A DNA stretch of 64,000 bases from Escherichia coli (lineage in GTDB: Bacteria > Pseudomonadota > Gammaproteobacteria > Enterobacterales > Enterobacteriaceae), in the NCBI RefSeq assembly GCF_003991155.1, contig NZ_CP031293.1; one strand, written 5' to 3'. The first letter of the stretch is position 1, and the number at the start of each line of letters is the position of its first letter. Of this stretch, positions 13,801 to 16,800 are shown piece by piece. The position numbers are program-made.

Positions 13801-16800
13801 GTATATGGCTGAAGTGGAGTCCGGCGTTTACCCGGGCGAAGAACACAGTTTCCATTAAGGAGTGACGTTGTGTTAATTATCGAAACCCTGCCGCTGCTGC
13901 GTCAGCAAATCCGCCGCCTGCGTATGGAAGGTAAGCGCGTGGCGCTGGTGCCAACCATGGGTAACCTGCACGATGGCCATATGAAGCTGGTCGACGAAGC
14001 CAAAGCCCGCGCCGATGTGGTCGTCGTCAGTATTTTCGTTAACCCAATGCAGTTTGACCGCCCGGAAGATCTGGCACGTTATCCACGGACCTTGCAAGAG
14101 GACTGCGAAAAGCTGAACAAACGTAAAGTGGATTTAGTTTTTGCGCCTTCGGTAAAAGAGATCTACCCGAACGGTACAGAAACCCACACCTATGTTGATG
14201 TTCCCGGTCTTTCCACCATGCTGGAAGGTGCCAGCCGTCCGGGACATTTTCGCGGCGTTTCGACTATTGTCAGCAAACTGTTCAACCTGGTCCAGCCGGA
14301 CATCGCCTGCTTCGGTGAAAAGGATTTTCAGCAACTGGCGCTGATCCGCAAAATGGTTGCCGACATGGGCTTTGATATTGAGATTGTCGGAGTGCCGATT
14401 ATGCGCGCGAAAGACGGTCTGGCGCTCAGTTCCCGTAACGGCTATCTGACGGCGGAACAACGTAAAATTGCGCCGGGTCTGTACAAGGTCTTAAGTTCAA
14501 TTGCCGACAAATTGCAGGCTGGCGAACGGGATCTCGATGAAATTATTGCTATTGCCGGGCAAGAACTGAATGAAAAAGGTTTCCGTTCCGATGATATTCA
14601 GATTCGCGATGCCGACACATTGCTGGAAGTCTCTGAAAACAGCAAACGTGCAGTGATTCTGGTAGCCGCCTGGCTTGGCGATGCCCGCCTGATCGACAAC
14701 AAAATGGTCGAACTGGCGTAATACTTAACTGGCGCTACGGCTGATGGCGCCAGTTATTCATTGCCACGTCATCTGTAAGCAATTATTCATATCGTAGACA
14801 ACTTAGTTAGAGTTAATTAGCTTATCAATCTCTGCAAGAGATAAAGCTGTCACCTCTGCAACGTCTTCCCGAGACATTCCTTTACTCAGAAGACGCTGGG
14901 CCAGTCTTACCTTCTGGAGTCCCTCTTTATATCCCTTCTGAAATCCCTTCTGAAATCCCTTCTGAAATCCCTTCTCTTCAAACCACTGCGCCAACGTCTG
15001 CCTGGTTTCTCTCCGTGTCTTTATTTCCATATGTTCCCTTAATTATCTGGTCAGTTAACAATAACAATTATCTGGCTATAACTGATAATGCAGATAACTT
15101 AGCTAATCAGCTTATCAACCTCAGCAAGAGGTAAATTTGCCATCTCTGCAACGTCTTCCCGAGACATCCCTTTACTCAGAAAACGCAGGGCGAATTCCTG
15201 TCTTACTTCCTGTCTAACCTCTTGTATTACCTCCTGTCTTACCTCCTGTCTTACCTCCTGCCTTTCCTCCTGTCTTCCCTTCTCTTCAAACCACTGCGCC
15301 AGCGTCATCATAGACTCCCCTCCCGTTTCCCTGTCTCTCAGCACACCATAAAACAAATCCGCTTGTTCAGTATGACCGCGTTGCAGCATATAGTTTTGCA
15401 TGGCAACTAACTGACTTCCGCTAGTGTACCCTTCGTCAATCAGCGTGACCAGTTGCTCCAGCAATAACATTAAGTCGCGTTGGCGAATATGTTTTTGCAG
15501 CAGTTCGAGAATCGCAATCCGCCGATGTTGCATGATTTCGTCATCCGGTGTGATAGTGATATCCACCAGCGGGAAAGGACTGTTATAGACGCGTCGCGCC
15601 AGCTCCGGCGAGTAAAACATATCAAACCAGCACATTGAGAGTGGATAAGGCGTGGCCTCGCCCTGATAAAACAAAATCGGCACCACCAGCGGCAGCTTAT
15701 CGTGATCCGCCTCCAGATGCCGGTGCATGGCGGCAATGGCATAGCGCATCATGCGAAAGGTCATTTTCTTATCCGGCTTGCTTTGATGTTCAATCACCAC
15801 ATGCAAATAACCGGGATTGCCCTGCATTTGTACGGAATAGAGTACGTCCGTGCTGTGTCCTTTCAGGCTTTCCTCAATAAAACTCCCCGACTCAAGATGC
15901 AGCGTGTCGAGGTCACACAGTTCGCGTAGCTCCGCTGGCAAATGAATATCCAGAAAGTCGCGAGCCGTTTCCGCATGCATTAAAAATTGTTTAAATACCG
16001 CATCATGCGGTGTGGTACTCGGTGCATCCATCTTCCCTGCCTTCCGTGCTGTCTTACGTGAAGGCAGTATCCAGTCAAGGCGCGCCGTCGTCAGCCGCCT
16101 CTTTTGTGTTTGCCGAGCAGCGTTCAGAGAAATTTCAATTGGTTACAGGTGTTACATGACTCGCTTCGGCACGGTACGCAAACTGCTGATGCAAATGCCG
16201 TCAGATGAGTAGACACTAAACAAAAATCGGGCAATACTGCGTGAGAATTTCCTCAAAGCAGGCATCGCCTGCTTCGTTAACGACAGGGTAGAAAGGTAGA
16301 AGTTATGATTCGCACGATGCTGCAGGGCAAACTCCACCGCGTGAAAGTGACTCATGCGGACCTGCACTATGAAGGTTCTTGCGCCATTGACCAGGATTTT
16401 CTTGACGCAGCTGGTATTCTCGAAAACGAAGCCATTGATATCTGGAATGTGACCAACGGCAAGCGTTTCTCCACCTATGCCATCGCGGCAGAACGCGGTT
16501 CGAGAATTATTTCTGTTAACGGTGCGGCGGCCCACTGCGCCAGCGTCGGCGATATTGTCATCATCGCCAGCTTCGTTACCATGCCAGATGAAAAAGCTCG
16601 CACCTGGCGACCCAACGTCGCCTATTTTGAAGGCGACAACGAAATGAAACGTACCGCGAAAGCGATTCCGGTACAGGTTGCCTGATTGTTATCCCTGCGG
16701 CTGGTTACTCACCAGCCGCGACATCGTCTCCAGCGAATCCGTTCTTAAGATATAAAGTCGTTTTAGTAACAACGGATTATCCCCCGGTTTTACTTTGCCT

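Follow-up and report, generated by a model that had tools for sequence, protein, structure and literature searches.

A free-standing duplicate of the RpnC tail beside rpnC in Escherichia coli, and its uncoupled repeat length

Rpn nucleases are toxin-antitoxin-like antiphage defence proteins in which the antitoxin is the toxin's own tail. A free-standing tail gene beside rpnC shows how such systems diversify and exchange their specificity determinant, a point already made by Zhong et al. (PNAS 2023, PMC10400941). According to that paper RpnS proteins in general block RpnL toxicity, and for K-12 rpnC both the internal start and the RpnCS protein made from it were demonstrated experimentally. The crystal structure of RpnAS has a compact three-helix fold whose long first helix forms the dimer interface (PMC10400941). 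The four-residue repeats of RpnS and RpnSs proteins vary in number between strains and start 8-20 residues after the initiating Met (PMC10400941); repeat variation in RpnSs proteins is reported there too, and neutralisation is lost when a single repeat is added. RpnS-type genes that stand alone occur in other species, and the YpaA/RpnESs protein was detected by SPA tagging (PMC10400941). The same authors named rpnCSs, drew it in their Fig. 2I downstream of rpnC in some strains, derived it from rpnC with loss through deletion or fusion to the N-terminal domain, and found RpnCSs grouped with RpnCS in their phylogeny (PMC10400941). The arrangement that we analyse here, rpnCSs beside rpnC, is real and polymorphic but was therefore already described in 2023, and a search for later literature found nothing further on RpnCSs among the papers it covered.

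The rpnC locus and its second tail

In the window (the whole stretch of E. coli DNA that was analysed, 64,000 nucleotides) rpnC occupies 15099..16031 on the minus strand and encodes the full-length recombination-promoting nuclease RpnC (RpnC-L, 310 aa), as called from the ORF, the Pfam and NCBIfam matches and the annotation of the RefSeq orthologues, which bear the name rpnC. It is flanked by panC and panD, both among the ORFs of the window and in the RefSeq annotation at matching loci, and this neighbourhood identifies it as the rpnC orthologue. The ORF had been taken for a YhgA-like/Rpn nuclease in the first-pass annotation, and rightly so, as residues 7-207 match Transposase_31 of Pfam (PF04754, E 6.4e-87), which covers the N-terminal ~200 residues. 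With TIGR01784 of NCBIfam the score is 277 bits (cut-off 52). Also D62, E81 and Q83 (in STDVLY...VIEHQS) stand one position before D63, E82 and Q84 of RpnA, the PD-(D/E)XK-type catalytic residues mutated in PMC5350276, this being a positional match read from the sequence and not a formal alignment. In PADLOC neither RpnC nor the 75-aa protein described below matched a defence-system model at E<=0.001.

The C-terminus of RpnC runs ...TLAQWFEEKG-RQEE(RQEV)3-IQEV-RQEV-RQEF-ALRFLSKGMSREDVAEMANLPLAEVDKLIS. The repeat region of this tail (module 1, GRQEERQEVRQEVRQEVIQEVRQEVRQEFALR, 15183..15278, minus strand, from the ORF sequence) comprises 32 aa between WFEEK and FLSKG, in units of 12 nt or 4 aa. 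Homology further predicts an intragenic small ORF, rpnCS (15099..15311, minus strand, 70 aa, MMTLAQWFEEKG...), which would start inside rpnC, in frame, and correspond to its tail. We infer this start in the present allele from homology to K-12 rpnC; the candidate ATG lies at 15311 with GGGAGGGGAG directly upstream.

Downstream of rpnC we find a 75-aa ORF (14803..15030, minus strand) that the ORF call and BLASTP identify as rpnCSs, in which the small tail protein of RpnC is encoded a second time by a gene of its own. It reads MEIKTRRETRQTLAQWFEEKG-FQKGFQKGFQKG-YKEGLQKVRLAQRLLSKGMSREDVAEVTALSLAEIDKLINSN and has its own four-residue repeat array, GFQK x3. Its repeat region (module 2, GFQKGFQKGFQKGYKEGLQKVRLAQR, 14893..14970, minus strand, from the ORF sequence) is 26 aa long, likewise in 12-nt or 4-aa units, and begins at residue 21-22, at the top end of the range given in PMC10400941. 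The first-pass annotation had placed such an ORF 68 bp downstream on the strand of rpnC, with GFQK x3, the same flanks as the rpnC tail and its own ATG and SD. All of this was confirmed by the ORF call and BLASTP, the SD being AAGGGA at 5 nt before the ATG. The protein has 41/76 identities (54%, E 1e-19) to residues 235-310 of RpnC in BLASTP, with TLAQWFEEKG and LSKGMSREDVAE...DKLI as conserved flanks common to RpnCSs and the RpnC tail. The DNA of both modules also aligns in blastn (14811-14998 against 15101-15306, 73% over 206 columns, E 1e-33), another alignment of the two modules runs ~30 nt beyond both stop codons, and the shared DNA blocks quoted at first pass are both present in both modules.

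As regards family and fold, the 75-aa protein matched the C-terminal part of TIGR01784 (positions 213-273, E 2.6e-10), at a score under the family cut-off. Pfam-A gave no significant match, with sub-threshold HTH-like and unrelated entries only and no DUF4351. Homologues of the protein bear precomputed PF27070 HTH_Rpn_C, and the rpnCSs orthologues in RefSeq are named 'RpnC/YadD family protein' or 'hypothetical protein'. An AlphaFold2 model of the RpnCSs monomer, of moderate confidence (mean pLDDT 72), predicts helices at 6-19, 24-49, 54-61 and 65-73. Foldseek with this model returned no PDB entry at E<0.001, the best matches being HTH proteins. Neither this search nor sequence and profile searches of the PDB returned an entry labelled Rpn or RpnAS, and in the latter only a designed 'CAP REPEAT' protein matched, at the HTH-like end.

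The spacer that separates the stop codon of rpnC from the start of rpnCSs (15031..15098, minus strand, includes the SD) was characterised by sequence, promoter/terminator scan and RNA fold. Most loci with annotation or gene calls have it at 68 bp, two (L023/L024) at 43 bp, and its opening ~30 nt share homology with the flank that lies 3' of module 2. Scanning 14650-16350 detected neither a terminator nor, within the spacer, a minus-strand promoter, and the RNA fold of the spacer lies within chance (z -0.57). An independent transcription unit for rpnCSs was dropped on this result, and from the lack of both signals in the 68-bp spacer we infer that rpnCSs is co-transcribed with rpnC/rpnCS. Between the converging panC and rpnCSs, RNA folding finds a GC-rich hairpin (AACTGGCGC...GCGCCAGTT, 14727..14755, unstranded) that is kept beside the rpnC stop in K-12. 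Its fold has -24.2 kcal/mol and a z of -4.1, and none of 200 shuffled sequences reached this stability. It was not called by the terminator scan because it has no T-run; it is a probable shared transcription end of panC and rpnCSs.

Polymorphism, tail exchange and repeat lengths

Counting module 2 as present where it was found with its spacer at a coverage of at least 80%, we found it in 1444 of the 5426 complete E. coli genomes (26.6%), with about 73% lacking it, so that across genomes the arrangement is polymorphic and not the same everywhere. K-12 is without module 2. The distance from the end of panC to the start of panD (14600-16400) is 1801 bp here vs 1467 bp in K-12, and the difference of 334 bp matches the excess of ~330 bp proposed at first pass. 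The broader suggestion made there, of a polymorphic second tail related to hypervariable small-protein antagonists, agrees with the rpnCSs of Zhong et al. (2023). Two-module carriers include an ST131 strain and ATCC 25922, and, by source label only, close homologues in the protein database belong to Escherichia marmotae and to unnamed Escherichia species. The layout is identical in 33 of 33 two-module loci, namely a separate gene just downstream of rpnC on the same strand, and in every locus fetched rpnCSs lies at the panC-rpnC site only. It may be added that the present allele with its three GFQK units is a rare length variant, found in only 4 records at an identity of at least 99%. A tblastn search of phage genomes for a phage-encoded tail mimic gave no match, and the plasmid collection held only 10 matching records, of which the annotated ones show the panC/rpnC neighbourhood, like the chromosomal locus.

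Strain 405 has a single-module rpnC whose entire tail is of the small-gene type, the crossover lying within the TLAQWFEEKG block. Up to GAAGAGAAGGGAA this gene follows the rpnC of ATCC 25922 (99.2%), and from ACG(C/T)TGGCGCAGTGG onward it follows the small gene of ATCC 25922 (93.5%), the two types of match overlapping by 32 nt. Judged from these alignments, direct-repeat recombination has yielded single-module alleles that carry the small-gene tail on the nuclease domain, and the earlier view of the stand-alone second tail as a trace of tail swapping is upheld by this fusion allele.

Over 22 haplotypes the repeat region of module 1 measures 12-40 aa, and in other strains that of module 2 measures 8-28 aa; the lengths of the places matched with module 2 (309/297/285/273 and 291/279 nt) change in 12-nt steps. 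Both modules have a repeat region of equal length in only 1 of the 22 distinct haplotypes, where ~1.45 would be expected under independence, the sample being small and partly picked for small-protein diversity. Therefore, neither avoidance nor matching of repeat lengths between the modules is accepted, and the long and the small protein have repeat regions whose lengths are uncoupled.

Role and maintenance of rpnCSs

Our preferred reading, to which we give a probability of about 0.85, is that the 75-aa ORF is rpnCSs, a tandem and diverged duplicate of the tail that is maintained and presumably co-transcribed, and that the locus would be a two-cassette store in which RpnCSs probably has its own pairing specificity or is a spare. 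The duplicated stretch is the final ~300 bp of rpnC, made up of the tail with some 30 bp of 3' flank, and its copy lies in tandem and has diverged; the transcript of rpnCSs is presumably common with that of rpnC/rpnCS. RpnCSs would be an RpnS-type helical protein pairing through its long, repeat-bearing helix, and the pair of modules would form a store of two tail variants, that is, of toxin-antitoxin pairing specificity. Going by the repeats, which are identical in the two, the intragenic RpnCS (15099-15311) is most probably what serves RpnC-L here as cognate antitoxin, while RpnCSs probably has a different pairing specificity or is a spare.

A possible but doubtful alternative is that RpnCSs is a redundant second antitoxin that, in spite of its different repeats, would bind the RpnC-L beside it, neutralise it and so raise the antitoxin dose. 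This would agree with the flanks TLAQWFEEKG and LSKGMSREDVAE...DKLI held in common with the RpnC tail, with the general block of RpnL toxicity by RpnS proteins, and with the purifying selection on the ORF given below. However, 21 of the 22 haplotypes differ from the resident tail in both repeat length and repeat sequence, the lengths vary independently, and a perfectly matched antitoxin is already supplied by the intragenic RpnCS. In the published assay a single extra repeat was enough to abolish neutralisation, though this length-matching rule rests on one engineered repeat in K-12 RpnC and may not hold for natural pairs with differences in sequence as well as length. In the present allele the repeat regions differ in sequence and in length (26 aa in RpnCSs vs 32 aa in RpnC-L), so under the published rule RpnCSs may not neutralise the neighbouring RpnC, and its antagonism of the full-length protein is the less obvious for it.

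Rather unlikely, in our estimate, is the stronger proposal that RpnCSs is a stored alternative specificity cassette and not the neighbour's antitoxin, and that recombination between the modules can move this cassette onto the nuclease domain, as in strain 405, making the locus a minimal two-cassette switch for the pairing specificity of the toxin and its intragenic antitoxin. It draws on the repeat region of RpnCSs varying independently of the resident tail (1 equal length in 22 haplotypes, about the chance value). Such switching would perhaps be driven by tail-targeting phage factors. If it is expressed, RpnCSs might in addition act in advance against non-cognate RpnC variants brought in by horizontal transfer, neutralising them.

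Module 2 could instead be a functionless leftover of tandem duplication that is slowly decaying and has been deleted in most lineages, which we consider improbable. Its absence from about 73% of the genomes would fit, and so would the lack of an own promoter and a pN/pS that is higher in rpnCSs (0.41) than in the homologous codons of the long tail (0.21; both on 33 loci). PGAP also labels rpnCSs a pseudogene in ATCC 25922 and LP5-1; yet both still translate from ATG to stop. The ORF starts with ATG and is intact in 33 of 33 two-module loci, a set in which 16 came from DNA searches and were unselected for an intact ORF, and in which ten look-ups had started from a protein that was called and intact. 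The value of 0.41 is itself well below 1 and shows that the non-repeat codons of rpnCSs are under purifying selection; an earlier value of 0.95, from a subset of 25 loci obtained with too narrow a pattern, was replaced by it on the complete 33 loci. Also the 20 nt preceding the ATG, including the SD, are near-invariant, with only two forms that differ by one base (25 loci tallied). At four loci the long gene is broken and the small gene intact, and the database homologues with labels of Escherichia marmotae and of other Escherichia species likewise speak against slow decay. Separate acquisition, by insertion of an independent DUF4351/RpnS-type gene beside rpnC with no local duplication, is very improbable: other species do have separate RpnS-type genes (PMC10400941), but the closest relative of this one is the tail of the adjacent rpnC, the homology reaches into the 3' flank, the small gene is at the panC-rpnC site only in all loci fetched, RpnCSs is placed with RpnCS in the phylogeny of PMC10400941, no phage homologue was found and the annotated matches in the plasmid collection adjoin panC/rpnC.

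Relation to known Rpn systems

The closest parallel in K-12 is ypaA / rpnESs, downstream of rpnE, which is likewise a second, separately encoded Rpn tail directly after its parent gene. It is an independent duplication, derived from RpnE and not RpnC, and unlike rpnCSs it is present in K-12. With the intragenic RpnS antitoxins (RpnAS, RpnBS, RpnCS) RpnCSs shares the RpnCS sequence family and, as predicted, a repeat-bearing long helix and a helical architecture. An intragenic RpnS is always identical to the tail of its own toxin because it is translated from an internal start within rpn, whereas RpnCSs belongs to a separate gene, whose repeats have come to differ in type and number from those of the resident tail. 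Compared with the published rpnCSs (PMC10400941) there is no difference in kind, as the panC-rpnC-panD locus, the strand, the position and the origin from the rpnC tail are the same. To that description we add the frequency of the two-module form, the 33/33 intact ORFs with a pN/pS of 0.41, the crossover in strain 405 and, from comparing RpnCSs with its neighbour, the uncoupled lengths of the repeat regions. Taken together, selection maintains rpnCSs in about one in four complete E. coli genomes, yet its repeat length almost never equals that of the neighbouring nuclease.

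The rpnC locus and its two tail modules

Between panC (13870-14721, + strand) and panD (16305-16685, + strand) two ORFs are found on the minus strand. The longer one of 310 aa (15099-16031) matches Pfam Transposase_31 over residues 7-207 (E 6.4e-87) and NCBIfam TIGR01784 with 277 bits; the matching gene in other genomes is named rpnC by RefSeq, and the ORF is an Rpn/YhgA-like nuclease. On direct reading of the sequence, D62, E81 and Q83 of RpnC are the counterparts of D63, E82 and Q84 of RpnA, mutation of which abolished RpnA activity (PMC5350276). An ATG at 15311 inside rpnC (minus strand), preceded by GGGAGGGGAG, is where the predicted 70-aa tail protein RpnCS would be expected to start. 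A spacer of 68 bp (15031-15098, minus strand) separates rpnC from a small ORF of 75 aa (14803-15030, minus strand), rpnCSs, which has AAGGGA before its ATG.

The protein alignment places the 75-aa product on residues 235-310 of RpnC (41/76 identities, E 1e-19), and at the DNA level 15101-15306 and 14811-14998 are 73% identical across an alignment of 206 columns (E 1e-33). As the DNA alignment runs on about 30 nt beyond both stop codons, the duplicated unit is the tail with a short 3′ flank. Both modules have the conserved flanks TLAQWFEEKG and LSKGMSREDVAE...DKLI, between which lie 32 aa in the rpnC tail (module 1), GRQEERQEVRQEVRQEVIQEVRQEVRQEFALR, and 26 aa in the small ORF (module 2), GFQKGFQKGFQKGYKEGLQKVRLAQR. 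The first-pass annotation had described two tandem modules with these flanks, the 68-bp gap and an ATG and SD belonging to the small ORF, and all these details are correct. The observation is confirmed and its interpretation, a stand-alone second tail beside the nuclease gene and a trace of tail swapping, is supported; both repeat rpnCSs as described by Zhong et al. (PNAS 2023, PMC10400941), and therefore the feature and this interpretation are already known. In that work RpnCSs clusters with RpnCS, hence its origin from RpnC, and synthesis of a downstream copy is demonstrated for YpaA/RpnESs only, not for RpnCSs (PMC10400941). Our literature search for work on RpnCSs after the 2023 paper found nothing later.

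Distribution and maintenance of the small gene

Queried with 14600-16400, a set of 5426 complete E. coli genomes yielded the locus in 5424. Module 2 with the spacer (query 14790-15098, coverage of at least 80% counted) is present in 1444 of the 5426 (26.6%), an ST131 strain and ATCC 25922 among them, so that the arrangement is indeed polymorphic. In K-12, where the small gene is not annotated, the corresponding place measures 1467 bp against 1801 bp in the window, and the 334 bp of difference agree with the approximately 330 bp proposed earlier. The place of module 2 with the spacer in E. coli genomes is 309, 297, 285 or 273 nt long, and also 291 or 279 nt; the 12-nt steps mean that the repeat number of module 2 is polymorphic on its own. 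The three-GFQK form of the window is rare, with at least 99% identity in 4 records. A large protein collection contains 167 members of the small-protein family at E<=1e-5, of about 55-77 aa and labelled as E. coli, Escherichia marmotae or unnamed Escherichia species; some of these proteins carry the precomputed Pfam PF27070 (HTH_Rpn_C).

It may be noted that O157:H7 strain 3-5-1 (locus L004, 623-920) has an unrelated panC-rpnC insert of about 300 bp in the place of module 2. It includes AAGTAAGTGACTGGGGTTAGCG and CCCCAGGAGCTTACAT, which are similar to the primer sites ERIC2 and ERIC1R, and judging by this likeness the insert probably represents a repeat element of the ERIC/IRU type. RefSeq/PGAP naming of the small gene is also inconsistent (L001, L002, L016, L017), being 'hypothetical protein', 'RpnC/YadD family protein' or a pseudogene, the latter labelled 'transposase' or 'hypothetical protein, missing N-terminus'; the ORF from ATG to stop is nonetheless intact in the genes so labelled.

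We examined 36 loci (the window, 18 RefSeq genomes and 17 assemblies), of which 33 have two modules. The small ORF is ATG-initiated and uninterrupted in all 33, including 16 that came from DNA searches without selection for an intact ORF, and among the 25 loci tallied the 20 nt 5′ of its ATG hardly vary. The small gene has a pN/pS of 0.41, calculated over 33 homologous codons outside the repeats, against 0.21 for these codons in the long tail; the value of 0.41 supersedes one of 0.95 from an incomplete locus set. In 4 two-module loci the small gene is intact while the long rpnC ORF is interrupted, with either an internal stop in the annotation or a split into separate gene calls (L009 1592-2536; L022 536-1432; L027 971-1432; L028 780-1432); panC calls are also split in L028, so that this assembly may be of low quality. 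The sequence comparisons favour a gene that is being maintained, with less constraint on it than on the nuclease tail. Most of the annotated or gene-called loci have a 68-bp spacer to rpnC; in L023 and L024 it measures 43 bp, because there the rpnC reading frame stops later. The small protein of these two loci has long-tail-like RQEG/RQEA/RQEE repeats.

Exchange between modules and proposed pairing specificity

Strain 405 has a single module. Over the stretch compared, its rpnC matches that of ATCC 25922 for 127 nt from the start (99.2%), and from nt 96 onward it follows the small gene and flank of ATCC 25922 (93.5%); the two matches share 32 nt within the sequence encoding TLAQWFEEKG, and the tail, GRQAVRQEVSQEFAQR...KLINSN, is of the small-gene type. 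Such an allele is what recombination between the two direct repeats, in their 5′ conserved blocks, would be expected to yield. K-12 rpnC directly abuts the panC hairpin and ends in ...AEIDKVINLI, its extra codons recalling the small-gene ends ...KLINSN and ...KLINLN, which would be compatible with a crossover close to the 3′ end. The small gene of ST131 strain 4993 (L013) and of strain R8 (L015) ends in AEMANLPLAEIDKMIN, the long-tail C-terminal type and not ...KLINSN, which suggests gene conversion from module 1 to module 2, in the opposite direction to strain 405.

One extra repeat in RpnCS left RpnC no longer counteracted, and vice versa (PMC10400941). Measured between WFEE(K/R) and (L/F)L(S/N/R)KG in 22 distinct pairs, the repeat region of the long protein spans 12-40 aa and that of the small protein 8-28 aa. 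Lengths are equal in only one pair, L019 (GCA_013045225.1, 28/28 aa), and even there the sequences are very different (GRQEVRQAVRQEVTQEVRQEVSQEFAQR against GFQKAYQEAFQKGYQEGLQKERQEFAKR). Given the two length distributions, independence predicts about 1.45 equal-length pairs against 1 observed, and therefore neither matching nor avoidance of length is seen in this sample, which is small and partly picked for diversity. The main rival explanation takes RpnCSs to be a redundant antitoxin. If the one-repeat rule is valid for natural alleles, the length differences mean that in most strains the small protein would be unable to pair with the adjacent RpnC; this would include the window strain, with 26 against 32 aa, in which the matched antitoxin would be the intragenic RpnCS. 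On the best reading, RpnCSs is maintained as an RpnS-type protein and as a tail cassette, with a specificity unlike that of the resident nuclease.

Expression signals and predicted structure

A consensus scan detected no terminator, nor any minus-strand promoter within the spacer or close to it, and the RNA fold of the spacer is not unusual (z -0.57). The simplest reading of the layout is that the small gene would be co-transcribed with rpnC/rpnCS. A stable hairpin at 14727-14755, between the converging panC and rpnCSs (fold -24.2 kcal/mol, z -4.1), may end the transcripts of both. Elsewhere in the window, Rfam matches above the gathering score are tp2 (42235-42348, + strand), naRNA4 (53622-53698, - strand), STnc40 (54102-54171, - strand) and PssrA (59818-59908, - strand), the last described as a plasmid-encoded Shigella sRNA and lying here in a chromosomal context.

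No homologue of the small protein was found in a search of phage genomes, neither protein matched any PADLOC model at E<=0.001, and in the PDB neither Foldseek nor sequence comparison yielded a significant match or an entry labelled Rpn or RpnAS. The C-terminal ~30 aa (14803-14890), LLSKGMSREDVAE..L.LAEIDKLI, match every unit of the designed PDB 8vd6 'CAP REPEAT' (E 3e-10 overall) and, weakly, resolvase/invertase-type HTH models; by these matches the conserved end of Rpn tails looks like a helix-turn-helix. AlphaFold2, run on a 28-sequence alignment, places helices in the small protein at 6-19, 24-49, 54-61 and 65-73 (mean pLDDT 72). The helices predicted in this model may resemble those of RpnAS, which is described as a three-helix bundle with a long first helix (PMC10400941).
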